Source: Bacteroidales bacterium (GTDB lineage Bacteria > Bacteroidota > Bacteroidia > Bacteroidales > PUMT01). Taken from it: a stretch of 61,000 bases of DNA. This document shows, piece by piece, positions 1 through 33,456 of this stretch; positions within the stretch are counted from its first letter, which is position 1; the number at the start of each line of letters is the position of its first letter. The position numbers and the translations under genes are program-made. The stretch is taken from the NCBI GenBank assembly GCA_007132225.1, contig SLPB01000061.1:1-61000 (forward strand), written 5' to 3'. The notes below the pieces were generated by a model. That model worked only from the letters and a program-made list of their open reading frames with translations, made no database searches and was not told the origin of the DNA.

Positions 1-744
1 CCCTTCCGCTCACCCCACAGCACCATAAGTTCAGTTGCAATGGTTGGTGGCGGCAGTGTACCACAGCCCGGAGAAATTTCACTTTCACATAACGGAGTGT
101 TGTTCCTGGATGAGCTGCCCGAGTTTCAGCGTTCTGTTCTTGAGGTTTTAAGACAACCTCTGGAGGACAGGGAGATAGATATTTCACGTTCAAAATATTC
201 AGTCCGCTATCCCGCCGGTTTCATGCTTGTTGCCTCTATGAATCCATGTCCATGCGGATACTATAGTAACCCTGAAAAGGAATGTGTTTGTCCGCCCGGC
301 ATGGTTCAGAAATATATTAACCGGATTTCCGGACCTCTTATGGACAGGATTGATATACATATTGAAGTAATACCGGTGCCATTCGAAAAACTTTCGGAAA
401 AAAGAAATGCTGAAAGTTCTGCAGCTGTCAGGGAGAGGGTTGCGAGCGCCAGAAAAGTGCAGGAAAGACGCTTCAGTAAATACAGTAATGTTCACTCTAA
501 TGCACAGATGAACACAAAAATGATCCACGAGTATTGCCCGATTGACAAAACAGGTCAGCTTTTACTTAAAAATGCCATGCACAAACTTGGATTATCCGCC
601 AGGGCATATGACCGCATACTTAAGTTAGCCCGTACAATATCCGATCTGGAGAGAACCACTGAAATAGAGAGTATACATCTGGCTGAAGCCATTCAGTACC
701 GGAGTCTTGACAGGGAGACATGGACAGTTCAATCAAGGGCATAA
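1..744 (+). CDS. comM: ComM/YifB Mg-chelatase-like AAA+ ATPase (5' truncated by window edge)
   Basis: Frame is open from base 1 (PFRSPHSTISSVAMVGGG). Motifs GEISLSHNGVLFLDELPEF, NPCPCG, SGPLMDRID and LSARAYDRILKLARTISDL are typical of YifB/ComM. Confidence 0.92.
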   Translation, partial: PFRSPHSTISSVAMVGGGSVPQPGEISLSHNGVLFLDELPEFQRSVLEVLRQPLEDREIDISRSKYSVRYPAGFMLVASMNPCPCGYYSNPEKECVCPPGMVQKYINRISGPLMDRIDIHIEVIPVPFEKLSEKRNAESSAAVRERVASARKVQERRFSKYSNVHSNAQMNTKMIHEYCPIDKTGQLLLKNAMHKLGLSARAYDRILKLARTISDLERTTEIESIHLAEAIQYRSLDRETWTVQSRA

Positions 745-866
745 TGGATCATCCATGCTGTATGCAGTTCTTTTTGTGTAACCTGGCAAAAAAAATAATC
801 CATGCTTTATTGACCTGCAGTCGGGTATACATACTATTTTGTGTTACCTGGCTGATGGCGGGGCAT
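744..866 (+). repeat. Two degenerate tandem copies of a dispersed intergenic hairpin repeat
   Basis: TTTTGTGTWACCTGGC at 772-787 and 837-852, and ATCCATGCT at 751-759 and 798-806. The second unit resembles 33398-33456 (CATRCTATTTTGT...GGCTGATG.CGGG) and folds 811-865. Confidence 0.5.
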
Positions 867-3228: not shown

Positions 3229-3251
3229 ATTTCCCGGTTATCTCCAAAATT

Positions 3252-3287
3252 TTAAAAAGCCTGCAGAATTTTCTGCAGGCTTTTTAA
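3252..3287. terminator. Bidirectional intrinsic terminator between hppA and lpxH
   Basis: Perfect inverted repeat TTAAAAAGCCTGCAGAA-tt-TTCTGCAGGCTTTTTAA with A and T tracts, between convergent genes. Confidence 0.85.
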
Positions 3288-3338
3288 TTGTCTTTTTTTG
3301 ACTTCTTACCCGGTAACAGAAGCAAACGGGCGAGTGCC

Positions 3339-4088
3339 TCAGGCAGAATAATTTTTAATTTCCATCTTCTCACCGTCAAAAACAGCATAAGAGAAATGCC
3401 ATAGCCAGTCCCCGAGATTAATATAGCGGGAGCCGTGATCTCCAAGAGAAATGTCAAGAGGGACATGGCGGTGCCCGAAAACAAAATAATCAAAATGTTT
3501 ATTCTCCAGTATCCGGTTGGCAAATATAATCTGTTCCTCATTATCTGCACCCTTAAAAGGTGTAATCAGCTCTTTGGAGTACCTGCTTTTATGCGACCAT
3601 TTATGTCCGAACCATATTGCGAAATTGGGGTGAAGCCTTGCAAAAATCCATTGCAGTGCAGGATTCGTGAATATCTTTTTTAATATTTTGAATCCTGTAT
3701 CCCCATCATCCATCCCGTCACCATGTGCCATGTAGAATGTCTTACCGAAAAGATCGGTAATGTAAGGGCCCGTATGAATTATCATACCGGTTTCACCGGG
3801 GAGGTAATCAAAAACCCAGATGTCATGGTTGCCGGTAAAAAAGTGAACCGGGATTCCACTGTCTGTTAGTTCCGCTATCTTTCCCAGTACTCTTGTATAT
3901 CCTCTTGGTACAACACGTTTGTATTCAAACCAGAAATCAAATATATCGCCCAGGAGATATATTTCGCCAGCCTCTTCTTTTATGCTATCCAGCCATTTAA
4001 CAAAGAGGCGTTCACGAGTGAGGCTGTCTGTGCCTGATAATCCGAAATGAGCATCGGAGGCGAAGTAGATATTTTTATTATGATTCAA
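3339..4088 (-). CDS. lpxH: UDP-2,3-diacylglucosamine diphosphatase
   Basis: Metallophosphoesterase motifs SDAHFG, LGDIFD, GNHD, HGDG, GHRH and NLGDW. TTG start. Confidence 0.88.
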   Translation of the reverse strand: MNHNKNIYFASDAHFGLSGTDSLTRERLFVKWLDSIKEEAGEIYLLGDIFDFWFEYKRVVPRGYTRVLGKIAELTDSGIPVHFFTGNHDIWVFDYLPGETGMIIHTGPYITDLFGKTFYMAHGDGMDDGDTGFKILKKIFTNPALQWIFARLHPNFAIWFGHKWSHKSRYSKELITPFKGADNEEQIIFANRILENKHFDYFVFGHRHVPLDISLGDHGSRYINLGDWLWHFSYAVFDGEKMEIKNYSA

Positions 4089-4103
4089 TTTGAGTTTAGT
4101 AGG

Positions 4104-5273
4104 TTAATCCAGTGCTCTTGCCAATCTGCGCCGTAGCTCCCGGGCGGACAAATTTTTTGCCATGATGCCTGCATCCCGGTTTATTAGATAGTTGGAAGGA
4201 ATCGCCTGTACATTATAGTGTTGCGCTGCAGTAAAGCCACCTTCTCCAAACTCTGCAACATGAACCCAGGGAAGCTCTGAATATCTTATGCTTCTAAGCC
4301 ATTCCTCCCTGTCCCTTTCAACCGATACCTGATAGATCTGAAAGCCTTTATTCCGATATTCCTGATGTACTGGAATAAGATCATGGCTTAGCTCAACACT
4401 GCCCGGATTGAGGGATGAGCCAAAAAACACCAGTATATATTTCTCCTGAAGGGAGTGAAGCCTGACTGTATCTCCGTCAATGCCGGGCATTGCTATATCA
4501 GGATATAACGAATGCACATTTCCGCTTGCTTCTGCCATATTTAGAATCCTGAACCGGTCATATCCCCTCTCCTGAGCCTCTGCATCTGCAGCAAGGGCTT
4601 TTACATGCAAAGATTCAGGATATTTTTTCCTGAGCGATTGTGCCAATATTTTCATGTATTGTATGTCCCTTACCTGATTCAGCACATAGTAATCATCTTC
4701 AAGTTGCTGGTAAATCGCTGTAATTGAGGCAAGAGACTCCATGTTTTCCATTATGAAAGCTATTGAAAATTTTCGCTGGGCCTGGATAATTTCATTAATC
4801 TCTTCATAAATTCGTGCTTCCTCTTTTTCAAAATCCGGATCATCTTCCAGGGCAGCTATTTCCATTATAAGGGGTTGAATCTGTTTTTTGGTTACAGCAA
4901 GCCGGTCATTTAATTTTTTAATCGATTCAGATCCCTCTGACCCATAAACTTTGAAGGTCCCGGACAAGTTTGAGGCATCGGCCACGATCCTGACCGTTTC
5001 TCCCGGTTCAGCCAGTAGTGTTATGAAGTTATTATCGCTGAGCCTTAGGTTATAAAAAGAAGGATGAGAAATTTTTGCTGAGAAGGAAAAGGTGCCGTTT
5101 CTTTTTATTTTGGCCGAATCCAGAACTGCTGGCCCCTCTACATTAAGGCGATCCAGGTAGATCATTTTACCTCTTCCCTCTTCCAGTTCACCTTTTATAC
5201 TCACCCTGCCGGATTCTTTACAGGAAACCAAAAGCATCACAAAAGGTAGTAAGAGTAATAATAAATGCTTCAT
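4104..5273 (-). CDS. DUF4369 + TlpA-like thioredoxin-fold lipoprotein lacking CxxC
   Basis: Lipobox LLVSC. Colinear with the neighbouring gene (KGFQIYQVS, IPSNYLI) but has SSLNPGS where the neighbour has ASWCGPC. Confidence 0.8.
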   Translation of the reverse strand: MKHLLLLLLPFVMLLVSCKESGRVSIKGELEEGRGKMIYLDRLNVEGPAVLDSAKIKRNGTFSFSAKISHPSFYNLRLSDNNFITLLAEPGETVRIVADASNLSGTFKVYGSEGSESIKKLNDRLAVTKKQIQPLIMEIAALEDDPDFEKEEARIYEEINEIIQAQRKFSIAFIMENMESLASITAIYQQLEDDYYVLNQVRDIQYMKILAQSLRKKYPESLHVKALAADAEAQERGYDRFRILNMAEASGNVHSLYPDIAMPGIDGDTVRLHSLQEKYILVFFGSSLNPGSVELSHDLIPVHQEYRNKGFQIYQVSVERDREEWLRSIRYSELPWVHVAEFGEGGFTAAQHYNVQAIPSNYLINRDAGIMAKNLSARELRRRLARALD

Positions 5274-19103: not shown

Positions 19104-19220
19104 ATTTTTTTATCCCTGAGTATATGATGTTTGATGAACCGCTTCTCTTTAACATAAAATTTTTTCCATCTATATAAAATAGGTTAATAAAATTAATAAT
19201 CAATTAATTATCGCTGTAAG

Positions 19221-19307
19221 GTTATTCATATACAGAATTTCAAAGCCGATGGATCCCCCTGTTTTATATATGTTATTTTGTGAGACTTTAGTATCATGGG
19301 GATTCAT
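19221..19307. repeat. Dispersed ~87-bp intergenic repeat, copy A
   Basis: Aligns with 33371-33456: a 22-bp block at 19/22 identity, then a 59-bp unit ATGGATCCC...GGGATTCAT with self-complementary ends. Confidence 0.7.
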
Positions 19308-19333
19308 CCGTCTGAAAGTATCCGTCTGAAAAT
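19306..19333 (+). repeat. 14-bp tandem duplication
   Basis: ATCCGTCTGAAAGT followed by ATCCGTCTGAAAAT. Confidence 0.8.
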
Positions 19334-19447
19334 ATTTTATGTAAATTTGAAATAACTACTTGCAGTTTTTGAATTAAATAATTAAAATGTTAACCGGGAT
19401 ATTTGAATCCGGCTGTTTGCCCTTTCCTTAGCATAAATACTTTTATT

Positions 19448-20362
19448 ATGATTAGTCCACCACCACTTAAGCCATATGATGAAATTGGAATCGTTACCTG
19501 TGCCGGTAAAATTGAAAAAGGAAGCCTCGATGCTGCCATAGTTATTTTGGAAGGATGGGGATTAAAGGTCACTACCGGGAAACATGTTTATGGCAGGTAT
19601 AACCAGTTTGGAGGAACCGACCAGGAGAGAGCAGAGGATCTGCAGTTTATGCTCGATAATCCAGGTATTAAAGCAATATTGTGCTCACGTGGCGGATATG
19701 GAACGCTCAGGATCATTGACAGGATAGATTTTAGTTTGTTCAGGTCCTACCCTAAATGGGTTGTCGGTTACAGCGATATAACCGTCCTGCATAGCCATAT
19801 AAATCAAAACTGCGGCATCGAAACTTTGCATGCCCTTATGCCATCGGAATTATCTCCCAAAAGAGATAAGGTGCTAACCAAAAGATCTGTCGATTACCTG
19901 AGAGAAGCATTGTTTGGAACTCTTCCTGCCTATTACCAGTCAAATCATCACCTCTCAAGAGAAGGGAAGGCTGAAGGGCTTATTACAGGCGGTAATCTCT
20001 CGGTGTTATACAGTTTACTCGGGTCATCATCGTTTCCCGATACCAGGGGCCGGATATTATTTATTGAGGATGTCGACGAATATCATTATCATATTGACAG
20101 GATGATGATTGCCCTTCGCCGTGCCGGAGTTCTTGAGCATGTTGCCGGAATAATTGTGGGTGATATGACAGGCATGAAAGATAATAAGGATCCTTTTGGT
20201 AAAACGGCGCAGGAGATTATTGCTGAAGCAGTTGATGATTTTGACTATCCGGTTTTATTTGGGTTTTCCTCAGGTCATCAGCCTGAGAACCATCCTTTGT
20301 TTCTGGGAAGGGAGGTATCTCTTTTTGTCGGGGAGGCTTCCTGTAGTCTGGCATTTAAATAG
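19448..20362 (+). CDS. ldcA: LD-carboxypeptidase (peptidase S66)
   Basis: Motifs RGGYG, GYSD (Ser), GGNL, IEDV (Glu) and SGH (His). ATG 19448 preferred over TTG 19403. -7 element TAAATTTG at 19342-19349. Confidence 0.9.
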   Translation: MISPPPLKPYDEIGIVTCAGKIEKGSLDAAIVILEGWGLKVTTGKHVYGRYNQFGGTDQERAEDLQFMLDNPGIKAILCSRGGYGTLRIIDRIDFSLFRSYPKWVVGYSDITVLHSHINQNCGIETLHALMPSELSPKRDKVLTKRSVDYLREALFGTLPAYYQSNHHLSREGKAEGLITGGNLSVLYSLLGSSSFPDTRGRILFIEDVDEYHYHIDRMMIALRRAGVLEHVAGIIVGDMTGMKDNKDPFGKTAQEIIAEAVDDFDYPVLFGFSSGHQPENHPLFLGREVSLFVGEASCSLAFK

Positions 20363-20390
20363 TTTAGTTTTCACTCTGAATCTGATATTT

Positions 20391-20762
20391 ATGGCTGAAC
20401 ATAATGAACTTGGAAGACGGGGTGAAGCAGTTGCGCTTAGATATTTAAAAGATAAAGCCTATACCATTCTTGAAAGTAACTGGAGAAGTGGCCATATGGA
20501 GATCGATATAATTGCCAGGAAACATGATGAGCTTATTATTGCTGAGGTAAAAACGCGGAGGAAGAATTCACTGGCAACGTTGGATGAAGTTGTAAATAAA
20601 AGAAAACAGAACCTGTTGATTAAAGCTGCCAATTCGTATATTGGGAAAAGCAACCTGAATCTCGATGTTCGTTTTGATATATTGATTGTTATCTTTTCTA
20701 ATATGTCCGGTGCCAGGGTTTATCATATTGAAAATGCTTTTTATCCAACCCTGAGGAGCTAG
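20391..20762 (+). CDS. yraN: YraN family PD-(D/E)xK nuclease
   Basis: Motifs MAEHNELGRRGE, NWR, EIDIIA, EVKTR, RFD and HIENAF. Start reassigned to ATG 20391. Confidence 0.92.
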   Translation: MAEHNELGRRGEAVALRYLKDKAYTILESNWRSGHMEIDIIARKHDELIIAEVKTRRKNSLATLDEVVNKRKQNLLIKAANSYIGKSNLNLDVRFDILIVIFSNMSGARVYHIENAFYPTLRS

Positions 20763-20919
20763 GGAAGAAAAGTACCACCGTGGCTTCAACATTTTCAGGT
20801 GTTTGTTACTGACTGACGGAGCATTGCAAGCATATTTTATTTAAATCATTGGTTTTGCAAACCTTGACGTAACAATATTTTCATGGACGATTTATCCGCT
20901 AAATAAAGTAAATTTTTTT

Positions 20920-21273
20920 ATGGACATAGAAATGATCAGAGAATACTGTCTTTCAAAAAAAGGGGTGACCGAAGAGCTTCCATTCAATGAAACCACCCTT
21001 GCTTTCAAAGTTATGGGCAAAATATTTGTTTTAACCTCGCTGGAAGGTGCTTTAGCTCTAAATCTCAAATGTGACCCTGCCAAAGCTGTTGAGCTGCGGG
21101 AAAATTATCCAGCCGTGCAGCCCGGCTACCATATGAATAAAAAACATTGGAACACTGTATATGTAGATGGCAGCATGAGGGAAGAGCTGATCACCGGGCA
21201 AATTGACCACTCTTACGATCTGGTTGTAGCCGGACTGACCAAAAAGGCAAAAGTTCAATTAAGATCTCTCTGA
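20920..21273 (+). CDS. MmcQ/YjbR family DNA-binding protein
   Basis: Motifs FKVMGKIF, NLKCDP, PGYHMNKKHWNTV and IDHSYDLV. Confidence 0.92.
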   Translation: MDIEMIREYCLSKKGVTEELPFNETTLAFKVMGKIFVLTSLEGALALNLKCDPAKAVELRENYPAVQPGYHMNKKHWNTVYVDGSMREELITGQIDHSYDLVVAGLTKKAKVQLRSL

Positions 21274-21396
21274 CCGGGCTTATCAGGGAGAGGGGTATTG
21301 TTACCCGGGACTTAAGGGTAAAATATCTGCCGGTAAAAAGATTGAAAATATTGCACGGACACTTTAATGGGGTAAAAACTAACGCCTAATTTACTG

Positions 21397-22413
21397 TTAA
21401 TCAATTAGTAAATTACAGCCTCTTATTTCAGAATTGTCAAAGCGGCCCAATATCTCAAATTTCCCGCAGGGAAGGTTCTTGCCAATATCTGCTGTTTCAA
21501 GGAAAGCACACGAGTCAATGTTTGCAAGGTCTATGATGTTCACCCCACCGCTTCTTCCGGTCTCAATACAGGTGAAAGGGTCATACAAATCCCTTATCAT
21601 TATCTTCATCCAGGGCGGTGAGCTGAATTTTCCTTCTGATTTTGAATAGGCCTGGGATAATAACTCGGTCATACCATATTCAGAATGTATCTTTTCTAAG
21701 CCCAGACCGGATTTTAATATGGAATGTAGCTCTTCTCTTATAATCTCCTTTCTTCTTCCTTTCATGCCCCCTGTTTCCATTATAATTGTGTTTTTTAATT
21801 TAAGGTTTTGTTTTTCCGCCAGATCAATCAGGGCAAAGCTTACCCCAAGTAAAAGGATTCTTTGGTTTTCTGATTCAAGCTTTTTTAAAGTTGAGCCAAG
21901 TTTGTTCAAATCATCAAGGTAAAAGCCACTTTGGGGGTGCCTGCTATCTGTGATAAGTTTCCCGGCCATATAAACCAGGGATGAATCTCCTCTTTCCAGG
22001 TAGGAGGGCAGCAGGGCGATAATGCAATAATCACCCGGCTCTCCGTAAAATAAATTAAAGCATTTTAAAAAGCTTGTTTTGTAAAGATTGATATCAGTTA
22101 AATAATGGCTTGATGGTACACCATAATCTGTACTGCTGCTTTTAAATACCATTTTGACCGGATCATGTGATGTAACGATTTTCTGTGTCTTAAAAAAAGA
22201 TACCGGGAGGCATGGTATATCCTCCAGTGAGGTTATACCCCGGGGATTAATTCCCAGAAGATCAATGTAGTGTTTGTAAATCCTGTTTTTTTGAGACTGG
22301 AAACAGAATATTTCCCAGGCCAGATCTTCAAATTCCCGGTTGGACGATATACGGAAAATTTTACTTTTCAGGGCCTCCCGCTTATCAGTACTCATCTTTT
22401 TATGGTTCATCAT
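21397..22413 (-). CDS. LuxE/PaaK-like acyl-protein synthetase (ANL-related acyltransferase)
   Basis: Motifs LPVSFFK, FKSSST, SSLVYM, ETGGMKGRR, SEYGMTELLSQAY, DLAN and RGCN. Confidence 0.8.
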   Translation of the reverse strand: MMNHKKMSTDKREALKSKIFRISSNREFEDLAWEIFCFQSQKNRIYKHYIDLLGINPRGITSLEDIPCLPVSFFKTQKIVTSHDPVKMVFKSSSTDYGVPSSHYLTDINLYKTSFLKCFNLFYGEPGDYCIIALLPSYLERGDSSLVYMAGKLITDSRHPQSGFYLDDLNKLGSTLKKLESENQRILLLGVSFALIDLAEKQNLKLKNTIIMETGGMKGRRKEIIREELHSILKSGLGLEKIHSEYGMTELLSQAYSKSEGKFSSPPWMKIMIRDLYDPFTCIETGRSGGVNIIDLANIDSCAFLETADIGKNLPCGKFEILGRFDNSEIRGCNLLID

Positions 22414-22552
22414 GTTGCAAATTAATATTAATCTTTCAGATTAATAATAGTTATTGAATGATTTCGTTTATTATATTTATGACCATAAACCAGTTTTAAT
22501 CCCTGTTTTATAAGCGAAAGCCACAGTTATTTGTAATACCAAAGCAATATAG

Positions 22553-23953
22553 ATGGAAAAATATCAAAAAAAGGAATTATTAAAAAGGATTGCCAGACTT
22601 GTAAAGCAAAATAAGGAACTTAATGAACAGTTGCGACAGCTTTCCGAGGGTAACAGGAAACTGGAAAGCCTGGTTGAAAATTATGAGCGTAAGCTTTCCC
22701 GTATTAAGTCCCCTGGTCATGAAGAGGATTCAAAGGCTGATGTTAGCGGTATACTCAAGTTTAAAATGGGAACGGTGCTGTTTGCCAACATTCATGGCTT
22801 TGCCAAGCTGACTGAAAATATGGACACACAGGGATTAATGGACGAACTTGATGAGCTGTTTTTTCATTTTGACCAGATAGTTAAGAAATTCAAACTGGAG
22901 AAGATAAAAACTATAGGTGACTCATATATGTGTGCAGGAGGGGTACCCCTAAAAAATAGCACTAACCCCATTGATGTGGTATTAGCCGCATTGGAGATGA
23001 ATAAATACCTTGGAGAACTGAAATCAGGATCAGACAAAAACAAGGTATGGGATATCCGCATAGGAATACATACAGGATCGGTTACAGCCATTGCAAGCGG
23101 AAAGAAAAAAATTTCCTGGGAGCTGAAAGGCGACACAGTCAATATTGCCAGCAGGCTGAGCTCTTCCTGTAGTAATGATAGAATAAATATTTCAGATAAT
23201 ACTTACGAGCTGATAAAGGAATTTTTTACATGTGAATATAACGGGAAAATACCGGTCAAATATCTGGGAAACCTTTCCATGTATTATGTGAAGGGGATCA
23301 TTCCCGATATTTCACTCGATGGTAAAGGCATATTTCCCAATAGTAAGTTTGGCACTAAGTTTAAACTCATTCAGTTTAGCGATATGCAGGAGTTAATTCT
23401 TGATAAGCTTGAAAAGGAATTACCCCGGCACCTTTACTATCATAATGTTAAGCACACCATTGATGTGGTTACCGAGGTTGAGCTATTAGGCTGGGCTGAA
23501 GGTGTGGATGAAGAAGATGTTTTATTGCTGAAAACTGCTGCACTTTTTCATGATGCCGGGCACACCGTGGGATATGATAATCATGAAGCTATTGGGTGCA
23601 GTATTGCAAGAGATTTTCTGCCTGGTTATAATTATACACCGGCTCAGATCGAACGGATTTGTGAGCTTATAATAGCTACCCGGATGCCACCCAGGCCAAA
23701 AAACCTGCTTGAAAAAATAATTTGCGATTCCGATCTTGATTACCTTGGCCGCAGCGATTTTATTCCCGTTTCAAATAATTTGTATGAAGAGCTGAAAGAA
23801 CAGAACAAAATAGGAACCCTTAATGACTGGAATAAATTACAGATCAAATTTATTTCCGGTCATCAATATTTTACTGAAACAGCCCGTAACCTTCGTGAAG
23901 TAAATAAACAAAACCAGATAGAGCGTATAAAACAACTTATTAAGCAGGATTAG
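22553..23953 (+). CDS. Coiled coil + class III nucleotide cyclase + HD-domain fusion protein
   Basis: Cyclase motifs VLFANIHGF, KIKTIGDSYM, RIGIHTG and GDTVNIASRL. HD motifs YHNVKHT, LFHDAGH, HE and CDSDLDYLG. Confidence 0.88.
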   Translation: MEKYQKKELLKRIARLVKQNKELNEQLRQLSEGNRKLESLVENYERKLSRIKSPGHEEDSKADVSGILKFKMGTVLFANIHGFAKLTENMDTQGLMDELDELFFHFDQIVKKFKLEKIKTIGDSYMCAGGVPLKNSTNPIDVVLAALEMNKYLGELKSGSDKNKVWDIRIGIHTGSVTAIASGKKKISWELKGDTVNIASRLSSSCSNDRINISDNTYELIKEFFTCEYNGKIPVKYLGNLSMYYVKGIIPDISLDGKGIFPNSKFGTKFKLIQFSDMQELILDKLEKELPRHLYYHNVKHTIDVVTEVELLGWAEGVDEEDVLLLKTAALFHDAGHTVGYDNHEAIGCSIARDFLPGYNYTPAQIERICELIIATRMPPRPKNLLEKIICDSDLDYLGRSDFIPVSNNLYEELKEQNKIGTLNDWNKLQIKFISGHQYFTETARNLREVNKQNQIERIKQLIKQD

Positions 23954-24094
23954 GCCCTAAGCTTAAGCTCATCCTCAATACAATTTGAGGTAAATCAAGT
24001 GAGCCTGACCATCAGGGTCAAACTCACCTTCAAATTAATCTGCCCCTTTATGCAGATTAAATGTCCCGGGAGAAAAGGTGACACTCTTCCGGAT

Positions 24095-25282
24095 CTAGCC
24101 TCTAATGGCAGTTATTCCGGGTAGCTCACGGCCCTCCATGTATTCAAGCATTGCACCGCCTCCTGTGGAAACAAAGCTTACCTGGTCTGCCAGTTTATAT
24201 TTATTAATTGCAGAAACCGAGTCTCCTCCTCCTATTAGGCTGAATGCTCCCTTATCTGTTGCTTCAGCAATTGCCAGGGCTACACTTTTTGTGCCGGCTT
24301 CAAATTTTTCCATTTCAAACACTCCCATAGGACCGTTCCAGAGGATGGTTTTGGATTCTCTTATAATATCCGCTATTTTATTAATGGATTCCTGGCCAAT
24401 ATCCAGTCCCATCCAGCCATCGGGCACCTCATCAATAGGTGTTTCCTTTGTTGATGCATTGGCATCAAACTTGTCGGCAACGATATTATCTGTGGGAAGT
24501 ATAAGATTAACGTTTTTTGCCTTTGCCTTTTCTATAAGATCACGTGCAATATCCAGCTTGTCTTCTTCAACAATAGATGCTCCTATCTTCCCTCCCTTAG
24601 CTTTAACAAATGTGTAGGTCATGCCCCCGCCAATAACAAGGTTATCTACCCGTTCCAGCAGGTTCTCAATGATAAGGATTTTGTCGGATACCTTTGCTCC
24701 TCCCATAATTGCTGTAAAAGGGGACTGAGGATCTTCAAGAATTTTGTCCATGCTGTTAAGTTCGCTTTCAATGAGATAGCCAAACATTTTATCTTCAGGA
24801 AAGAATTTGGCAATTATAGCAGTTGAAGCATGTGCGCGGTGGGCAGTTCCAAATGCATCATTAACATAAACATCTGCCAGTGATGCCAGTTCAGCAGCAA
24901 ATTCCTCGTTTCCCTTCTTCTCTTCTTTATGGAATCTCAGGTTTTCCAAAAGTAGAATCTCTCCGGACTTAAGATTTTTTGCCATCTCCAGGGGAACATT
25001 TCCAATACAGTCATTTGAAAATTTTACCGTGGTGCCGGCCAATTTTGAAACATGCTTAACAAGATGCTTGAGTGAAAACTTCTCTTCAAAACCTGTCTCC
25101 GGCCTTCCAAGATGAGACATAAGAATTACAGAACCTCCCGAAGAAAGAATTTTTTTTATGGTTGGCATGGCTCCCCTGATACGTGTATCATCTGTTATTT
25201 CAAGTTCACTGTTAAGGGGTACATTGAAATCCACCCTGACCAGTGCTTTTTTCTTCTTAAAGTTGTAATTTTCAATTTTCAT
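24095..25282 (-). CDS. pgk: Phosphoglycerate kinase
   Basis: Motifs [43 protein letters not shown] and STGGGA. Confidence 0.98.
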
Positions 25283-25356
25283 GATTTGTATAGGTTTAAG
25301 TAAAAATTTTATTTTGTCCGGATGTTAATATTTTAACGACTAACATTAAACTTATG

Positions 25357-25390
25357 CAAAAGTAAAAAACTATTTTTTATTTTACCTTTG
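25357..25390. promoter_or_regulatory. Back-to-back -7 elements for pgk (minus) and holB (plus)
   Basis: CAAAAGTA at 25357-64 (TACTTTTG on minus) and TACCTTTG at 25383-90. Both match TAnnTTTG. Confidence 0.55.
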
Positions 25391-25527
25391 TCTCCAAATG
25401 ATCTTGCAAATAATTAGTCGTTATTTTTTATTAAAAATGGCCAAGTTGGCTTAAAGCCTTGAAAAGTCAGGACTTCCCCGTTTAACTTACAGAAAATGTG
25501 TCTGATAACCATAATTTTTATATATAA

Positions 25528-26658
25528 ATGCAATTTAAAGATATAATAGGCCAGTCAGAAGTAAAAACCAGCTTATTACATATTGCAAATGAGCGAAGGG
25601 TCCCTCATGCACTCCTGTTTGCGGGAAATGAGGGTGCCGGTATGCTGGGCCTTGCTATAGCTTTTGCCAGGTACCTGAATTGTGAAAATCCGCAGGAAAC
25701 AGATTCATGCCAGGAGTGCAGTTCATGCAGAAAATATAGCAAAATAATTCATCCGGATTTACATTTTGTTTTTCCGGTCGCTTCAACAAAAAATTCCGGG
25801 AGTAATCCTGTTAGTGATGATTTTTTGACGGTTTGGCGTGAATCAGTACTTTCAAATCCATACATGGGACTTTTTCAATGGTATGAATATATGGGTGTTG
25901 AGAATAAGCAGGGAACAATAACCAGGAATGAGAGTATTCAAATAATAAGGAAACTATCTTTAAAGAATTTTGAAGCAACATATAAAGTAATGATCATATG
26001 GATGGCTGAAAAGATGAATATGTATTCTGCCAATAAATTACTTAAAATCCTTGAAGAACCTCCTGAAAATACGGTGTTTATCCTGATCGCCGAAAATACT
26101 GACCAGATCATTCCCACCATATTATCCCGTACCCAGCTTATAAGGATACCCAGGATTGATAAAATTAGTATGGCAAATGCATTAAAAGATAATTATGATA
26201 TAAGGGACCAGGATCAAATAGATGGTCTGGTGAGACTTGCCGAGGGTAATTTTCTTACGGCAATAGAAGCGGTTAAAGAAACAGAAGAGATTAGCTATCA
26301 TTTTGATATGTTTGTGAAGTTGATGCGGTTGTGTTTTTCGGTTGATATTGTGGGGATATCTTCCTGGATTGATGAAATGGCTAAACCGGGAAGGGAAGTC
26401 CAAAAGCAATTTTTTCAGTATGCTTTGCGTCTTATACGTGGAAACTTTATATTGAATGTAAAAGCAGGTGATATAGATCTTTTATCGGGTGAAGAGAAAA
26501 ATTTTTCATCCCGGTTTTCTAAATTTATTCATCCCGGGAATGTTTTTCTTATAAGTGATGAATTGAATAAGGCCTGTACTCACATTGAATATAATGGTTA
26601 CAGCCGGCTTGTTTTTTTTGACCTGGCATTGAAAATGGCCAGATTATTAAAGGCTTAG
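25528..26658 (+). CDS. holB: DNA polymerase III subunit delta'
   Basis: Motifs HALLFAG, a zinc-binding Cys cluster, HPDLH, NKLLKILEEPP and TILSR. Confidence 0.93.
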   Translation: MQFKDIIGQSEVKTSLLHIANERRVPHALLFAGNEGAGMLGLAIAFARYLNCENPQETDSCQECSSCRKYSKIIHPDLHFVFPVASTKNSGSNPVSDDFLTVWRESVLSNPYMGLFQWYEYMGVENKQGTITRNESIQIIRKLSLKNFEATYKVMIIWMAEKMNMYSANKLLKILEEPPENTVFILIAENTDQIIPTILSRTQLIRIPRIDKISMANALKDNYDIRDQDQIDGLVRLAEGNFLTAIEAVKETEEISYHFDMFVKLMRLCFSVDIVGISSWIDEMAKPGREVQKQFFQYALRLIRGNFILNVKAGDIDLLSGEEKNFSSRFSKFIHPGNVFLISDELNKACTHIEYNGYSRLVFFDLALKMARLLKA

Positions 26659-26817
26659 CTTTTTTAGATTTTTGTACTTTTGCTGCTCACATATTCTAAT
26701 CATACTTTTTATATCCGGGTTATGAATCTCAGTAATCTCAGTAAAAATATTTGGCCCGGGAATTTTGTGGATATAAAAATTAAATGTTGGTTGCCAGCAA
26801 AAAATAATTAATTTGAT

Positions 26818-27981
26818 ATGACTACATATTTCAGAGGATGTCCTGCCATAATGACCGAATCGGGGCATGAACAAAAGAAAATATGTTCATGCAACAGCCT
26901 GGAGGTATTTGACTGGCTGGCTGATTTTAAAGATATGGCAGTTAGTCACGATATTATTGAGATAAGGTTTAAAAATACGAGAAAGGGGTTTTTTTTAAAT
27001 GGCAATCAGTTAGTGCTCAAGCAGGGTGATATTGTAGCAGTGGAGTCTTCGCCAGGCCATGATATAGGTGTTGTTTCGTTGCGCGGGGAGCTTGTTCTGG
27101 AACAAATGAAAAAATATAATGTTTCCCCTGACAGTGCAAACCTCAGGAAAATATACCGCAAGGCCAAACCGGCAGATCTGGAAAAATGGAAGGAATCTAT
27201 TCTGTTAGAGATGCCTACTATGCTTAAGGCCCGTGAGATTACCGAATCGATGAAACTTAATATGAAGATAAGTGATGTCGAATACCAGGGAGACAATACC
27301 AAAGCTATCTTTTATTATATTGCTGAAGAGAGAGTTGATTTCCGCGAGCTTATTAAAGTATTGGCCGAAGAGTTTCGTATTCGTATTGAGATGAAACAGG
27401 TTGGTGCCAGGCAGGAGGCCGGGCGCATCGGAGGCATTGGTGTTTGTGGACGGCAGTTGTGTTGCAGCTCATGGCTGGTGAATTTTAAATCGGTTACAAC
27501 AAATGCAGCAAGGATTCAGGATATTTCTCTTAATCCGCAGAAACTGGCCGGGCAATGCAGTAAATTAAAATGCTGCATCAATTATGAGGTCGTAACATAT
27601 AGTGACGCGAAAAGAGGGTTTCCTGAGCTGAACAAGGTGCTGGAAACCAACGAAGGGAAATATTACTTTCAAAAAGCTGAGATTTTTAAAAAATTAATCT
27701 GGTATTCCGACAATCCTGATTCAAATTTCAAGATGGTGCCCCTTACTATACAACGGGTCAAAGAGGTAATTACGCTAAATAAAGAAGGCAGGAAACCTGA
27801 TAAGCTTTTAGAGGACAATAACAATAATTACCCGGAAGTTACAAAAGAGAATGATTTTTTGATCAATGAAAGTATAACACGCTTTGATAATGCCGTGGAG
27901 TCAAGGGGAAGGAAAAAAAAGAAAAAAAGGAAAAAAAATAGTAAGTTCAAAGGACAAAATAATGGCAAGCAAAAGCTTTAA
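26818..27981 (+). CDS. ricT: PSP1-domain RicT/YaaT family Fe-S protein
   Basis: Motifs RVDFRELIK, GGIGVCGRQLCC and KLAGQCSKLKCC. Lys-rich tail. -7 element TACTTTTG at 26675-26682. Confidence 0.88.
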   Translation: MTTYFRGCPAIMTESGHEQKKICSCNSLEVFDWLADFKDMAVSHDIIEIRFKNTRKGFFLNGNQLVLKQGDIVAVESSPGHDIGVVSLRGELVLEQMKKYNVSPDSANLRKIYRKAKPADLEKWKESILLEMPTMLKAREITESMKLNMKISDVEYQGDNTKAIFYYIAEERVDFRELIKVLAEEFRIRIEMKQVGARQEAGRIGGIGVCGRQLCCSSWLVNFKSVTTNAARIQDISLNPQKLAGQCSKLKCCINYEVVTYSDAKRGFPELNKVLETNEGKYYFQKAEIFKKLIWYSDNPDSNFKMVPLTIQRVKEVITLNKEGRKPDKLLEDNNNNYPEVTKENDFLINESITRFDNAVESRGRKKKKKRKKNSKFKGQNNGKQKL

Positions 27982-28462
27982 AAGATTTTTCTTCCGGGTA
28001 TTTAAATACACCCTTGCAGGCTTATTCTTCGGAGTGCTTATTTCCTGTGACCAGGATCTTGTTTACGAGGAAAATGAACGTATCCCGGGCAATAAATGGA
28101 ACCGTTATCACATTCCCGTCTTTGAGGTCGGAATTTCTGATACCCTTGAAGCGCATGACCTTATTATAAATATTAGAAATACAGGCGAATACCCAATGGA
28201 GAATCTTTTTTTATTTATTTCGGTTAAAGCTCCGGGGGGAGCATCCACAAGGGACACCATTGAACTTTCTTTAGCTGAATCCTCCGGCAGATGGAAAGGC
28301 AGGGGGTTTGGCAGTATCTGGCAAAACAGGTTTTATTACAGGCAAAACGTCCGTTTTGCCGAAAAGGGTAAATTTATTTTCCAGGTGGAGCAGGCTATGA
28401 GGATTGAAGATTTGCCAGGGATTGTAGATGTGGGATTAAGGGTGGAAAAGTCGAAGCGTTAA
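27962..28462 (+). CDS. gldH: Gliding motility lipoprotein GldH
   Basis: Lipobox LISCD. Motifs RNTGEYPMENLFL, DTIELSLA, GRWKG, QAMR and DVGLRVE. Follows PSP1 as commonly seen in Bacteroidota. Confidence 0.88.
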   Translation: MASKSFKRFFFRVFKYTLAGLFFGVLISCDQDLVYEENERIPGNKWNRYHIPVFEVGISDTLEAHDLIINIRNTGEYPMENLFLFISVKAPGGASTRDTIELSLAESSGRWKGRGFGSIWQNRFYYRQNVRFAEKGKFIFQVEQAMRIEDLPGIVDVGLRVEKSKR

Positions 28463-28485
28463 CATTGATTTAAGTAATTAAAGAA

Positions 28486-29181
28486 GTGGCAAAAAAGAAA
28501 CTGCAAAGATTTGCTGAAATTCCGAAATTCAATAATGTTGTACAGGCCGGTGTAGATGAGGTGCTTAACAATGAACATCGTTTGTGCGGGAAATGGGGCG
28601 AATTTTTTTTCTGTTCACCAAATCCAATTGTTATTGAACTTGGATGCGGGAAAGGTGAGTACACCGTAGGACTGGCAAATTTATTTCCGGAAAGGAATTT
28701 TTTGGGTGTGGATATTAAGGGATCAAGAATATGGTCCGGCGCCCGGCATGCATATGAGAATAAAATGCAGAATGTCGGATTTTTGCGGACCCGTATAGAA
28801 ATGATTTCTTCATTTTTTGAAAGAGAAGAGATAGATCAGATATGGCTTACATTTCCGGATCCTCAACTTAAAAAGGCCAGGAAGAGGCTTACATCACCAG
28901 CATTTTTGAATCGTTACCGCCGATTTCTCAGGAGCGGCGGACCGGTTCACCTGAAAACAGACAGTCTTGAGCTTCACAATTACACCCTTTCGGTTATCAG
29001 GGCAAACGGACTTGAATTGCTTGAAGCAACCACTGACCTCTATAGTTCTGTGCATGCCAGGGAGGAAAATTCCATAAAAACATATTATGAAACCAGGTAC
29101 CTTGAACAGGGAAAGTCTATCTGCTACCTTAAGTTCAAAGTTGATTGTTTAAAAGAAATTGAAGATCCTGATGAAAACTGA
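28486..29181 (+). CDS. trmB: tRNA (guanine-N7)-methyltransferase
   Basis: Motifs ELGCGKGEY, GVDIK, TFPDP, LKTD and TYYE. GTG start. Confidence 0.95.
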   Translation: MAKKKLQRFAEIPKFNNVVQAGVDEVLNNEHRLCGKWGEFFFCSPNPIVIELGCGKGEYTVGLANLFPERNFLGVDIKGSRIWSGARHAYENKMQNVGFLRTRIEMISSFFEREEIDQIWLTFPDPQLKKARKRLTSPAFLNRYRRFLRSGGPVHLKTDSLELHNYTLSVIRANGLELLEATTDLYSSVHAREENSIKTYYETRYLEQGKSICYLKFKVDCLKEIEDPDEN

Positions 29182-29214
29182 ATTTTTCGCCAGATTCTAT
29201 TAAACCTGATTTAT

Positions 29215-29550
29215 TTGATTGAAAACAAGGGGTTTTTTGAAAAGGTTTATTACGTAACATCGCTAATACCCCCGGGAAGAGTGAGTACCTACGGGGCTAT
29301 TGCCCGATATCTCGGGGCTGCCGGTTCTGCACGAATGGTCGGATGGGCGTTGAACAACTGCCATGATTCTGGTGAATTCATTCCTGCTCACAGGGTGGTA
29401 AACCGCAATGGTATTCTTACCGGGAAACATCATTTTGGCACAGCAAATGCCATGAAGCAACTCCTGGAAAATGAGAATGTTGAGGTTGAAGACGATAAAG
29501 TATTAAATTTTGCCCAAATATACTGGGATCCCTGCAGGGAACTTAAATAA
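29215..29550 (+). CDS. Alkyltransferase-like (ATL/MGMT family) protein
   Basis: Motifs IPPGRVSTYGAIA, ARMVGWAL and PAHRVV (Ala in place of the catalytic Cys). Confidence 0.88.
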   Translation: MIENKGFFEKVYYVTSLIPPGRVSTYGAIARYLGAAGSARMVGWALNNCHDSGEFIPAHRVVNRNGILTGKHHFGTANAMKQLLENENVEVEDDKVLNFAQIYWDPCRELK

Positions 29551-29558
29551 CCAGGATA

Positions 29559-30524
29559 TTAGTTCCCGGGTGATCCCTTTTTAAGAGGAAAAGGGATCAT
29601 ATCCTTTATATTCTCCAGTAGCTCTCTATTCCTGAAACCGACAAACCAGGGATTAAGATTATCTTTTTTATTATAGATAAGCTGCTGCCCGGTATTGGCA
29701 GCCTGAACAACCCCTCCCCCGGCAGCAAGCACTATTGCATGTCCTGCAGCAGTATCCCATTCCCAAATATTTGTAAACCTGGGATATATATCAGCTTCAC
29801 CCTCGGCAAGCATACACAGTTTAATGGAGCTGCCGGTGGTAACAATCCTGGTATCATGGTATCTTTTACTGAATTCATTAATAAAGCGGCGGGTCCGTTC
29901 ATCCGGGAAAGACCGGCTGGCCACTATTCCGTAACCCTTTTTGCTGGTGAAGGGAAGCTGAATGCCATTTTCAAGCCAATTTATATCAGAGGGCACATTT
30001 ACCCAGAACCTGTTATCCGTTCCGGGGCCCTGTTTGCCGGTTAAAATATTGTTAACAGCATCGCCAAAAGAGCCATAAGCTAAATTGTTCAAGGCAGAAG
30101 CGTTATTAAAACGCCATGAGCCGAAATTTTTAATTCCGGCATACAAAATATCCCTGACCGGCACATACACCACCCCGGACCAGGGCTGCTGATCAGCTAT
30201 AAGAGCTATATTAACGGTAAATTCGCCGGTGCCATCAATAAATTCCCTTGTCCCATCCAGGGGGTCAACAAGCCAGAAACGTTTCCATGATTTCCTTTTC
30301 CTGTAGGATACAGACCGTCCCTCTTCGCTTAAAACCGGCAGTCCGGTATCCTCAAGCAGGGAGGTTATTACTTTATCAGCCCTGATATCTGCAGTGGTAA
30401 CAGGAGATTCATCGGCCTTGGCATCAATATTATAATCGTTACTCCTGCCGATATCCATAATTTCCAGGCCTGCCTTTAGCGCAGCAAGGATGGAAATATT
30501 AAGCAATTTCCCGTAGTCATCCAT
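29559..30524 (-). CDS. cysQ: 3'(2'),5'-bisphosphate nucleotidase
   Basis: Motifs KADESPVTTAD, LSEE, DPLDGTREF, GSSIK and EWDTAAG. Confidence 0.9.
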   Translation of the reverse strand: MDDYGKLLNISILAALKAGLEIMDIGRSNDYNIDAKADESPVTTADIRADKVITSLLEDTGLPVLSEEGRSVSYRKRKSWKRFWLVDPLDGTREFIDGTGEFTVNIALIADQQPWSGVVYVPVRDILYAGIKNFGSWRFNNASALNNLAYGSFGDAVNNILTGKQGPGTDNRFWVNVPSDINWLENGIQLPFTSKKGYGIVASRSFPDERTRRFINEFSKRYHDTRIVTTGSSIKLCMLAEGEADIYPRFTNIWEWDTAAGHAIVLAAGGGVVQAANTGQQLIYNKKDNLNPWFVGFRNRELLENIKDMIPFPLKKGSPGN

Positions 30525-30537
30525 CTTATAAAATTAA

Positions 30538-30591
30538 TCCTGCCTGTTATGCCGGGAACATCCGGATATTTTATCATATTTACAGGCAGGA
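30538..30591 (-). terminator. Stem-loop between the DUF1080 gene and cysQ (terminator or processing site)
   Basis: 10-bp inverted repeat TCCTGCCTGT(30538-47)/ACAGGCAGGA(30582-91) enclosing an inner CCGGG-AACA-TCCGG hairpin. Followed by TTAATTTT on the minus strand. Confidence 0.45.
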
Positions 30592-30617
30592 AATAGCATT
30601 GGCCGGATGAATTAAAC

Positions 30618-31664
30618 TCAGTTAATTATGGGGGTAAGCAACATATTTCGGAATGATACCGGCCCATGGTCCCCCTGCAGGAAAATCGGGCCGGGAGCAA
30701 ATACATCTGACTGAATGGCACCCCCGGTAGGTCCGTACACAGGCTGATTGTCGATGATAGTAATGTTGTTAAGAACAACTGTCACATGCCTGTCAACCAA
30801 TGTGATATCCATCGACTGCCATTCGCCGGCGGGCTTTTCCGCGGCAACCAGGGGAGATATACGGCTGTAAAGACCTCCCATATGATGGCTGCTGGGTTCC
30901 ATACCATATGAATCCAGAATCTGAATTTCGTACATGCCCCTCAGATAGACTCCCGAGTTACTGCCTTCTGGAACATTGACCTCAAGTGTGAGATTGAAAT
31001 CCTCAAACTCATCTGTTGTCCGCAAGTTTCCGTATCTGATACGGGGTTCCCCGGGAACCTGCATTGCATCATTAAGCAGAATGCCATCAACGGCCTTCCA
31101 TCCGTTTACACGGTCATCCCCGATTAGTTCCCAGCCTGTGAGATCAACTCCATTAAACAGCTCAACAGGCTCACCGAGCTCAAGAGCAGAAAGATCAGGT
31201 GCAGGAGGAACATCAGGCAGTTTTACACCCTGGAAAAAGGATGAATCAATTCCAATGCCACCGGCCCGCGGCACCATGAAGTAACCAGTGATACTTTCCC
31301 CGTCTGCTCTGGCCTCTATCCAGCTGGTAACTGTATGAACCCTTGGTGTATCATCAGTTGCTGTGTCCCTTCTCCGGTTTGAGGTGCGGGTAACATGCAA
31401 AACACCCTCCTCTGTAAGAAAAATGTGTGCAACAGGAGATACGCTGCCTCCCCTCCAAAGCAGGTCAGCATCAAGGTAACTATCTTCCTGGCGCACATCA
31501 AGCCATCCAACACCACTGCCATCGATATCAAAGCTCCAGTGGCCGGTAAATTTGCTAATATCGGCATTACTCTGAGGGTCATCATTTCCGGCAGTCTGAT
31601 CCTGGCAGGAAATAAACGGCATAAAAACAGCAATCACTAACAAACTGAAAAAAATTGTTCTCAT
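30618..31664 (-). CDS. DUF1080 (3-keto-glycoside hydrolase/lyase family) lipoprotein
   Basis: Lipobox FISC. Motifs LFNGVDLTGW, NSGVYLRG, EIQILDS, AGEWQ and LQGDHG..FRN. Confidence 0.88.
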   Translation of the reverse strand: MRTIFFSLLVIAVFMPFISCQDQTAGNDDPQSNADISKFTGHWSFDIDGSGVGWLDVRQEDSYLDADLLWRGGSVSPVAHIFLTEEGVLHVTRTSNRRRDTATDDTPRVHTVTSWIEARADGESITGYFMVPRAGGIGIDSSFFQGVKLPDVPPAPDLSALELGEPVELFNGVDLTGWELIGDDRVNGWKAVDGILLNDAMQVPGEPRIRYGNLRTTDEFEDFNLTLEVNVPEGSNSGVYLRGMYEIQILDSYGMEPSSHHMGGLYSRISPLVAAEKPAGEWQSMDITLVDRHVTVVLNNITIIDNQPVYGPTGGAIQSDVFAPGPIFLQGDHGPVSFRNMLLTPIIN

Positions 31665-31838
31665 AATATATTCGGGATTAGGTTATAAAATTTCTGAAAA
31701 ATTCTGCTCTATCATAGAAATATCCGTTGTGATAACAGGGAAATATAATTCAAATATAAGGATTCTTTACAAATAGAAGTCCGCATTTATCTTTCCATAT
31801 TTGCAAATCTTTATCCGCAATCCTTATGATAAAAAGTC

Positions 31839-33185
31839 TTATGATGATGGAGCCCTGCCTGGAACGGGTGCTACAGGCTCAATCTCTACAGGTCCCATCC
31901 TGTATTCTTCAGGCCCAAGCCTTAAATTTGAGCTCATAATACTTTCAAGGGTAATATCCTCCCCGGTGTATGCTGATTCTCTCCCCATAATGCATGTCAG
32001 TGTTGAGGATGCAAGAGTATCAGCTTCATTAACAGGGTTATCGGTGCGGATGGCGGTCACAAGATTTATCATTTCCTGATCATAGGGAGACACTGGCACC
32101 CTGTCCATTGGCAGGCCGTCTTCATCCGTTGGATATTCATACTCCCATAATATATTACCCTCATAATCCATTATCCGGTTTTGGCAATTTGTATATCCCC
32201 TGGTTCCGTAAATTACCTGAGATACATTGTTGGTGCACCCGTCAATTTCACGGCACATTCCATGATAACTCTTCTGATCGTCAAATACATAATCCACACT
32301 GAAGAAATCGTACATGTTGCCAGAAGGCCTGTGATGCCGTCCTCCCATTCCGGTTGCCCGTATGGGGTATTTTTCAAAGAACCAGTTTAAAATATCAATC
32401 TGATGAATAAGCAGATTAACAATTGAATCGCCTGTGAGCCAGGCCCAGTTTGGCCGGTTCCTTATCATGGCCTCCATGTCGCTCCACCCTTCCTGTCTTC
32501 TGATGACAGGTGGTGCACCCCTGTTATAATAACAATTGGCTGATATGAGGTCTCCTATGGCCCCGTTTTTTATCTTGCTGAAAGTTTTGACATAATCGTG
32601 CTGATGCCGGTATTGGGTGCCTGCAACAACACACAGCCTGGCTGATTCAGCCATTTTACCTGTTGCCATTACTGATCTGGCACCGACAGGGTCAACACCG
32701 GCAGGCTTTTCAATAAAGGCATGTTTTCTTGCCTGTATAGCTGCTTCGAAGTGCCTGGGCCTGAAATGTGAAGGGGCAGCTTCAAGGATTATATCAATAT
32801 CGGAATCTATTACCTGCTTGTATGCATCAAATCCCAAAAAACAATTTTGATCGGGGATATCGACATTATGGCTTTTTTTCAGAGATTCCCTGCAATTGTC
32901 AAGACGATCCTGGAAAACATCTGCAAGTGCTGTTACCTGCAGATTGGGCCCTGAATTGAGAAAGTTAATTGCCGCCCCGGTACCTCTGCCCCCGCATCCT
33001 ATTAATCCCGCTTTTAAGGGTGGGCCGTCAGGTGCCTTTATAGGAAAATCAGGCGCTTCATAACGTTCACCTGATGGTGTACAGGCAGTAAAAAAAGATT
33101 TTGACAAGACGGCACCTATTAATCCAAGGGAAAAAGCATCCCCGATAAATTTTCTCCTACCCGGTGATTTAGCTTTATCATCCAT
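31839..33185 (-). CDS. Tat-exported Gfo/Idh/MocA oxidoreductase
   Basis: Twin-arginine RRKFI and a possible lipobox FTAC. Motifs GCGGRGTGA, EKP and HQID. Confidence 0.9.
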   Translation of the reverse strand: MDDKAKSPGRRKFIGDAFSLGLIGAVLSKSFFTACTPSGERYEAPDFPIKAPDGPPLKAGLIGCGGRGTGAAINFLNSGPNLQVTALADVFQDRLDNCRESLKKSHNVDIPDQNCFLGFDAYKQVIDSDIDIILEAAPSHFRPRHFEAAIQARKHAFIEKPAGVDPVGARSVMATGKMAESARLCVVAGTQYRHQHDYVKTFSKIKNGAIGDLISANCYYNRGAPPVIRRQEGWSDMEAMIRNRPNWAWLTGDSIVNLLIHQIDILNWFFEKYPIRATGMGGRHHRPSGNMYDFFSVDYVFDDQKSYHGMCREIDGCTNNVSQVIYGTRGYTNCQNRIMDYEGNILWEYEYPTDEDGLPMDRVPVSPYDQEMINLVTAIRTDNPVNEADTLASSTLTCIMGRESAYTGEDITLESIMSSNLRLGPEEYRMGPVEIEPVAPVPGRAPSS

Positions 33186-33370
33186 AACAGTTTATTTAAT
33201 ATTGATTAATTAATAGATTTTTTTGATCCCTATCAAAATTAAAAAAATAATAGGAGAACTTTCACCCGGTTTAATGGCATTTAATAGCAGTTAAATATTT
33301 TCTCTTTTGTCATTAAAATATTGAATAAACTATTGTTTTCAAATTTAAATTCAGATATTTACTAAGGCAT

Positions 33371-33456
33371 GGTATTCATATTCAGTATTTCACTCTCATG
33401 GAACCCGCATGTTTATTCATGCTATTTTGTTTGCCGAAGGCTGATGCGGGATTCAT
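33371..33456. repeat. Dispersed ~86-bp intergenic repeat, copy B
   Basis: Homologous to 19221-19307. The 59-bp unit ATGGAACCCGCAT...ATGCGGGATTCAT forms a 13-position terminal stem. Confidence 0.7.

Follow-up and report, generated by a model that had tools for sequence, protein, structure and literature searches.

The 61,000-nucleotide stretch of Bacteroidales DNA considered here (contig SLPB01000061.1 of assembly GCA_007132225.1; hereafter the window) carries two similar hairpin-forming units in its intergenic DNA, which raises the question whether these units represent a regulatory structure, a protein-bound site or something that moves. A sequence-only reading had described them as a dispersed family of 59-87 bp hairpin repeats, and had offered a structured small RNA (sRNA), an element like a repetitive extragenic palindrome (REP) or a MITE (miniature inverted-repeat transposable element), and a protein-bound site as options. 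By comparing the copies within the genome and between relatives we find that the repeats are a mobile family that inserts precisely and that is apparently undescribed: a full-text literature search, covering mainly papers available without subscription, yielded no description of it. In the following, G000 denotes the genome that holds the window, C its contigs, and L and the other G numbers loci and genomes of relatives. The + strand is that of the window, on which the earlier reading was made, and the genes linked to the repeats read on the opposite strand.

A repeat family made up of modules

The window contains two full copies, one of which interrupts an older repeat (module D):

19167..19304, + strand: copy 1, a full module of type A (nhmmer E 2.8e-25; crossover placed by variant copies), consisting of its own CAT start, an AT-rich part of ~76 nt and a hairpin ending in TT
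19249..19307, + strand: hairpin core belonging to copy 1 (ATGGA-stem, loop that includes a small inner hairpin, stem-TTCAT)
19305-19307, + strand: target-derived CAT beside copy 1
19137..19166, + strand: left piece of the module D split by copy 1 (joined flanks versus uninterrupted D copies 76-82%)
19305..19349, + strand: right piece of the same module D (joined flanks likewise 76-82%)
33318..33453, + strand: full type-A module, copy 2 (E 3.9e-30; 92-95% identity to other copies in the genome), its left junction eroded, so that the profile matches from 33323 and the start at 33318 is inferred
33398..33456, + strand: hairpin core of copy 2 (81.6 bits)
33454-33456, + strand: target-derived CAT beside copy 2

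The unit is thus larger than had been proposed (~135-138 bp instead of 59-87 bp), and the 22-nt box noted earlier lies inside its left portion. The reported identities were reproduced, i.e. 19/22 for the boxes at 19221-19242 and 33371-33392 and 37/59, ungapped, for the two 59-mers; an identity of 37/59 to 19249-19307 is attained by none of the genome's 445,298 intergenic 59-mers that are free of the element. The expectation of further copies was borne out, as an iterated nhmmer search of the whole genome recovered 87 core matches (0 in the reversed genome) and expansion into the flanks gave 143 regions spanning 17,417 bases (17.4 kb).

Beyond the single unit of the earlier reading, the family comprises several types of non-coding module of ~60-140 bases: type A (134-139 bp), type B (~103 bp) and module C (61-65 bp, 49 distinct sequences). 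On the gene strand A, C and a rarer type share one plan, namely AA-N5-CAT, a 33-36-nt loop, ATG-N5-TC and a triplet, and a search with this plan gave 62 matches in the genome versus 12 in the reversed genome. Since nearest-copy scores reach 0.99-1.0 for several copies, at unrelated loci, the spread is recent.

BLAST detected the element in 18 of 19 genomes of the same bacterial family and a covariance model added the nineteenth (21 matches), making 19/19; in other Bacteroidales families the same model was positive in 13 of the 139 genomes (14/140 in all searched), and in a phylum-wide search in none of 145 other genomes. The architecture is kept in the distant families, with two classes of spacer length (71-80 and 27-29 nt). 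In sister species the best copies are 85-89% identical, versus ~65-71% for the adjoining orthologous genes, and this excess suggests horizontal spread or constraint. Phage and plasmid collections held no match to the family, and three patterns searched against viral contigs gave 0, 1 and 0 matches, the one having arisen by chance in GC-rich coding sequence. Two copies are located on a 3-kb contig (L075) that is binned in a metagenome-assembled genome (MAG) titled Thiotrichales; the contig is probably mis-binned, because its genes look Bacteroidales-like.

The hairpin and the far end of the module

Both window units fold with paired ends that include a G.U, as had been claimed. The gain in folding energy of single copies over shuffled sequence is only modest (RNA z -1.7 and -0.5 on the + strand), so that the case for the structure rests on covariation and not on energy. 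Among 32 diverse cores 92.4% of the cells are paired, and cells in which both sides have changed number 53, versus 18.1 after shuffling and at most 12 when slid; these counts are inflated by sequence kinship, but compensatory changes nonetheless recur in separate families. The inner hairpin covaries between C-G and G-C (17:14). A G.T mismatch (A.C on the other strand) at pair 4, next to the junction, is conserved, 81 of the 87 distinct cores having it, as counted with a regular expression that fixed pairs 2, 3 and 5. Likenesses to the hammerhead, group I introns and dif/Xer sites were dropped by eye, their motifs not being conserved.

The foot of the hairpin varies between ATGGA, GTGGA and GTCGA, and the triplet beside the hairpin is complementary to the far end of its own module (ATG/CAT, GTG/CAC, GTC/GAC), so that the hairpin would become complete once both ends are joined, which is also the case in the circles of integron cassettes. 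Of the 7 GTG-type copies whose left end can be assigned, 6 carry CAC at the far end, and CAT is retained on the hairpin side, again in 6 of 7. The next three bases likewise form pairs with the start of the same module (83 pairs versus 58.0 ± 3.5 in 52 modules; 37 versus 26.5 over the 22 distinct combinations, p=0.0002), and show no pairing excess with the downstream flank (51 versus 52.3). When modules are folded as circles the own-end helix closes in most of the examples shown, and 23 of 31 circular modules fold better on the + strand, with a mean gain of less than 1 kcal/mol.

Filled and empty sites, arrays and nested insertions

Sites with and without a module were found in three settings: L083 carries a 201-bp module and L094 a 399-bp array where G000:C58 and G000:C142, respectively, have a single TTCAT, and window copy 1 splits a module D that occurs whole elsewhere. 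In total 28 pairs of flanks were found between relatives and G000, most of them too diverged for the junction to be read. On the + strand TTCAT precedes 81 of 110 left ends (the regular expression itself fixed the last bases) and also stands at the end of the modules, and copies in head-to-tail arrays share a TTCAT junction. Module C is found inside A and B, alone, and in tandem runs of its own; upon its insertion ATGAA is not duplicated, and its end reads GTCAA. The pentamer repeats at A and B copies are likewise explained by the modules' own end and not by target duplication. Of the marks of transposition looked for, neither a target-site duplication nor a transposase with matching ends was found, and mobility is supported by the filled and empty sites instead.

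The same observations bear on the idea that a regulatory RNA or a protein-bound site, itself not mobile, was spread by gene conversion. Such a site would fit the strong structural conservation and the position of 136 of the 140 longer regions outside called open reading frames (ORFs), but it is contradicted by the filled/empty pairs, the arrays and the nested insertions; moreover, near-identical copies occur at unrelated loci, the genes adjoining copies are mutually unrelated, and no Rfam family reached the gathering threshold, so no explanation was found in Rfam for what had been called a repeat without a known feature. We consider this idea highly improbable. The options offered earlier can be narrowed accordingly: a REP/MITE-like element is right in the sense of being mobile, although the modules are neither MITE nor REP proper, and an sRNA or protein site does not suffice.

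Insertion directly after ATG, often a start codon

Read on the other strand TTCAT becomes ATGAA, and insertion usually takes place as ATG^AA on the strand opposite to that of the earlier reading. In a few variant cases AA is found on the hairpin side and the gene continues as ATG-GA (G000:C108) or ATG-AT (L238); as read from these junctions, the crossover is directly after ATG. It follows that the host ATG stays upstream and that an ATG or GTG of the module becomes the start; two genes of G118 now appear to start with GTG-AAA. Module C follows ATG in 51 of 67 contexts despite its GTC/GAC ends.

The outermost left ends coincide with the ATG of an opposite-strand ORF of at least 100 codons in 24 of 41 cases in the genome, versus a background in which 498 of 1978 tolerated ATGAA sites (25%) are starts (p ~1e-5). 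For other lineages the corresponding count is 24 of 51 outer ends, with a looser rule for cut ORFs. Selection against insertions at other sites could contribute to this enrichment. The meaningful link is to the start codon of the opposite-strand gene and not, as had been supposed, to the downstream genes of the + strand, even if neither of the two full window copies occupies such a position (0/2). No bias for a replication strand was seen (41/92, p=0.35, with rough third-position replichore calls), an apparent signal from raw skew having gone once these calls were used.

A folded circle as possible intermediate

Taken together, the precise insertion, the crossover, the covariation, the own-end pairing, the arrays, the nesting and the start-codon enrichment, all of them derived from sequence comparison, lead us to view the modules as non-autonomous mini-cassettes inserting at ATG^AA, which may well move as folded single-stranded circles via an integron-cassette-like single-strand exchange by an enzyme acting in trans; we give this account about an even chance of being right. 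Excision would join the module's own end to its own start and thereby complete a dumbbell whose stem would contain the junction, next to the conserved mismatch. A tyrosine-recombinase-like protein supplied in trans would cut at that junction and at a genomic ATG^AA, and cleavage at the 5' edge of a 7-base spacer that separates inverted triplets is in keeping with a tyrosine recombinase. The AT-rich end would act as a ribosome landing region, so that the host gene would stay translatable. Whether the modules then make up a distinct class of mobile DNA, i.e. dumbbell circles of 62-138 bp that are recognised by structure, integrated by a recombinase at ATG starts and swap in their own start codon and initiation region, is a further step that we make only tentatively, and that we think somewhat doubtful.

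Several points weigh against the circle. The population-contig matches listed include no empty allele, the matches listed from reads include no joint that skips a whole copy (depth being low outside one run), and no circle was seen: a read joint from 33457 to 33323, present in four runs, is explained by tandem arrays. The indications for the strand that would be folded conflict: the conserved G.T pairs favour the + strand, but stem positions 6-13 hold 12 G.T versus 9 A.C, and the geometry of the cut favours the other strand. The AAC/GTT triplet of attC sites is absent, the junction reading ATG, GTG or GTC followed by AA, and integrase sites usually have stems longer than the 13-17 bp seen here. 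Finally, no mobilising enzyme of the families tested in the carrier genomes co-occurs with the modules. A short autonomous element may be missing from the data, because all carriers examined are draft assemblies and MAGs may miss short contigs.

The families tested were Y1, REP-associated tyrosine transposases (RAYT), IS91, IS110, reverse transcriptase, TnpB/IscB, resolvase and two types of integrase (profiles PF01797, NF047646, PF04986, PF07282, PF14239, PF02371, PF00078, PF00239, PF00589 and TIGR02249), all of them negative or unlinked. PF07282, PF00239 and PF00589 gave nothing linked to modules, and PF14239 had no match in the genomes and none in the control either. An integron integrase (TIGR02249) occurs in just one of 20 genomes of the bacterial family, which also counts against the circle; it is the one in G000:C39:34864-35746 (L202), at a contig end (397.6 bits). 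A SAM_4-type integrase, present in 7 of 19 family genomes, was rejected as partner for its absence from G000 and the lack of association across the order (5 of 14 element-positive versus 47 of 126 negative genomes), a further point on the same side. This integrase family occurs in 52 of 141 Bacteroidales genomes and no characterisation of it was found in the literature search; in two sister-genus genomes a gene of this type has an old copy 150 nt upstream of it (L322:1108-1304, L323:2270-2404). The neighbour ORFs (no Pfam scan) revealed no recurrent mobility gene: 216 in G000 were inspected by eye, 988 from related loci were clustered, and, of 237 without a G000 homolog, those listed were inspected by eye.

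Possible mobilisation via RNA

Alternatively, modules might be transcribed and then either retroposed by a reverse transcriptase or used as guide or donor by an IS110-type recombinase with a two-base AA core. Two conserved G.U pairs on one strand and the constant 33-36-nt loop with a conserved TCAT would agree with an RNA, and the IS110 element of G000 lies between module-D sequences. The enzymes are, however, found in a minority of the family genomes (reverse transcriptase 6/20, IS110 4/20), no copy stands beside the relatives' loci examined, IS110 loci included, and the match of C loops to their own targets, as a guide would require, is weak (p=0.01) and driven by a few related copies. The small loops are moreover mostly three-base GNA, which is typical of DNA hairpins. 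Altogether we find this route unlikely. The IS110-family element (404-aa frame) is located at G000:C181 ~3130-4635 and at the right end of C174 (L204); in the non-coding region downstream of it there are short segments that match D, as though the element targeted D.

Relation to known mobile elements

The modules resemble integron cassettes in having a hairpin site at one end, head-to-tail arrays and a short genomic target motif, and in that the other end of the same unit completes the hairpin, as is the case for attC. They differ in lacking the AAC cleavage triplet (the outer triplet varies between ATG, GTG and GTC), gene cargo and a co-occurring integrase, in their length of 62-138 bp, and in their target, ATG^AA versus GWT. 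In the portions of a preprint on attC cassettes that bear on this (bioRxiv 10.1101/2022.09.11.507474), the hairpin is recognised by structure on one strand, cassettes form arrays and insert into the genome at a short motif, and isolated SALIN cassettes insert at attG sites.

The main rival to the circle is that the modules are non-autonomous derivatives of a Y1 HUH transposase, i.e. PATE- or REP/BIME-like (BIME, bacterial interspersed mosaic element), in which an imperfect hairpin and a DNA guide direct the nicking of both ends and of the target. The behaviour of module C, with no target duplication and its GTCAA end, would suit such a route, and TTCAT is given as the target motif of the IS605-family element ISGst5 in a part of the text of bioRxiv 10.1101/2023.03.14.532601. 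Covariation between guide and cleavage site, the conserved mismatch and the mosaic arrays also resemble IS200/IS605 and REP systems, as far as these are treated in the relevant sections of PMC8266576, in which each IS200/IS605 palindrome has its guide on the 5' side and REPs begin with GTAG. Like IS200/IS605 PATEs (e.g. of ISGst5), the modules have no terminal inverted repeats, a short fixed target, an own end that resembles the target, guide-like bases that covary and no target-site duplication. PATEs, however, have subterminal hairpins at both ends, each with a 5' guide, and insert 3' of the whole 4-5-nt target, whereas a module has a single hairpin and an AT-rich other end without a conserved one, its crossover falls inside the pentamer (after ATG, in few variant cases), and its paired triplet is on the wrong side for a 5' guide. 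The lack of a replication-strand bias noted above speaks against this route too. With REP/BIME systems and their TnpA-REP (RAYT) the modules share the intergenic position, the many copies, the imperfect hairpin and the mosaic tandem arrays, but not the 20-50-nt palindrome with its mostly GTAG foot, the CT cleavage site or the REPtron gene; the modules are moreover much longer units and insert cleanly at start codons.

As to the enzymes, no cognate TnpA, TnpB or IscB was found for the modules: G000 has no PF01797 or REP-transposase gene over the cut-off, and the Y1 loci of relatives have ends unrelated to modules or REPs of their own, as does a RAYT-like gene near one copy in G067. On balance a Y1 origin seems to us rather unlikely. 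Palindromic repeats of their own, unrelated to the modules, surround the RAYT/Y1 genes of G067 and G017 (L216:1710-1835, 2474-2506; L023:1040-2145), the unit in G067 being bounded by a 67-nt direct repeat, and five sister species carry a distinct IS200-type Y1 element, which is multi-copy and has a conserved hairpin at its right end (L024-L028).

Two further classes were rejected. MITEs of the DDE type have terminal inverted repeats, whereas here one arm is internal, the ends are not inverted and there is no target-site duplication; for IS91, five loci of the Y2 type (PF04986), in 4 of 20 genomes but not in G000, lack module ends. A loose analogue is bcr1 of Bacillus cereus, described in the consulted portion of PMC6542083 as lineage-restricted 100-400-bp repeats tied to the pentamer TTTAT with the enzyme unresolved; it is likewise dispersed, but differs in sequence, host and motif, and start-codon replacement and own-end pairing are not seen for bcr1 in that portion.

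Other copies and neighbouring sequences

The window holds three more remnants, of which the last was absent from the earlier reading:

743..790, + strand: truncated hairpin core at the stop codon of a YifB/ComM-like gene (743-788 E=0.0011; E 2e-11 to the copy in C84)
809..866, + strand: degenerate hairpin core upstream of the pyrophosphatase gene (826-852 E=0.0007)
20839..20895, + strand: degenerate type-B remnant (20839-20886 E=0.0026)

The weaker copies reported at 744-787 and 809-866 are thus real matches, although truncated or degenerate rather than full. The position of copies upstream of -7 elements was confirmed by TAnnTTTG boxes at 916, 19342 and 33557; among the neighbours named, the Na+-pyrophosphatase and the NifU-domain gene were recovered, and the match for the LD-carboxypeptidase remained below the curated cut-off. 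Genes of the type IX secretion system (T9SS) and GldH are present in the window, and the metagenomic runs that contain the sequence are soda- and salt-lake samples, with no RNA run among those listed.

Modules D (~150 bp) and the rarer E follow the AA-N5-CAT hairpin plan with other outer triplets, and D holds a GCGAAGC mini-hairpin. They are found at least at the following sites:

G000:C137:44174-44340 and G000:C143:620-950
G000 contigs C41, C30, C63, C49 and C161
L054 and L134

In G017 an identical 20-nt GC-rich insert, possibly another small mobile repeat, lies inside modules, immediately before the hairpin (L247 and L251). At G000:C38:478-1353 a 292-aa ORF stands between two copies in opposite orientation; by eye, from its motif, we take it to resemble a SMODS/CD-NTase nucleotidyltransferase.

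Implications

A mobile element that inserts at start codons and restores them would follow a safe-harbour strategy without a match in the literature searched. Core genes, presumably including leuB and ispF as named from their translations, receive a different leader from the modules, and in some cases also a different start codon (GTG for ATG). Copies also break assemblies, 33 of the 362 contig ends in the genome lying inside one. The well-defined anatomy of the modules provides a ready substrate for an enzyme search, and a recombinase that needs only a folded donor of ~62 nt and a target of 3-5 bases would be of interest both mechanistically and as a tool. If the tentative view of a distinct class of mobile DNA is true, modules would rewrite the 5' ends of hundreds of genes in environmental Bacteroidales without killing them.

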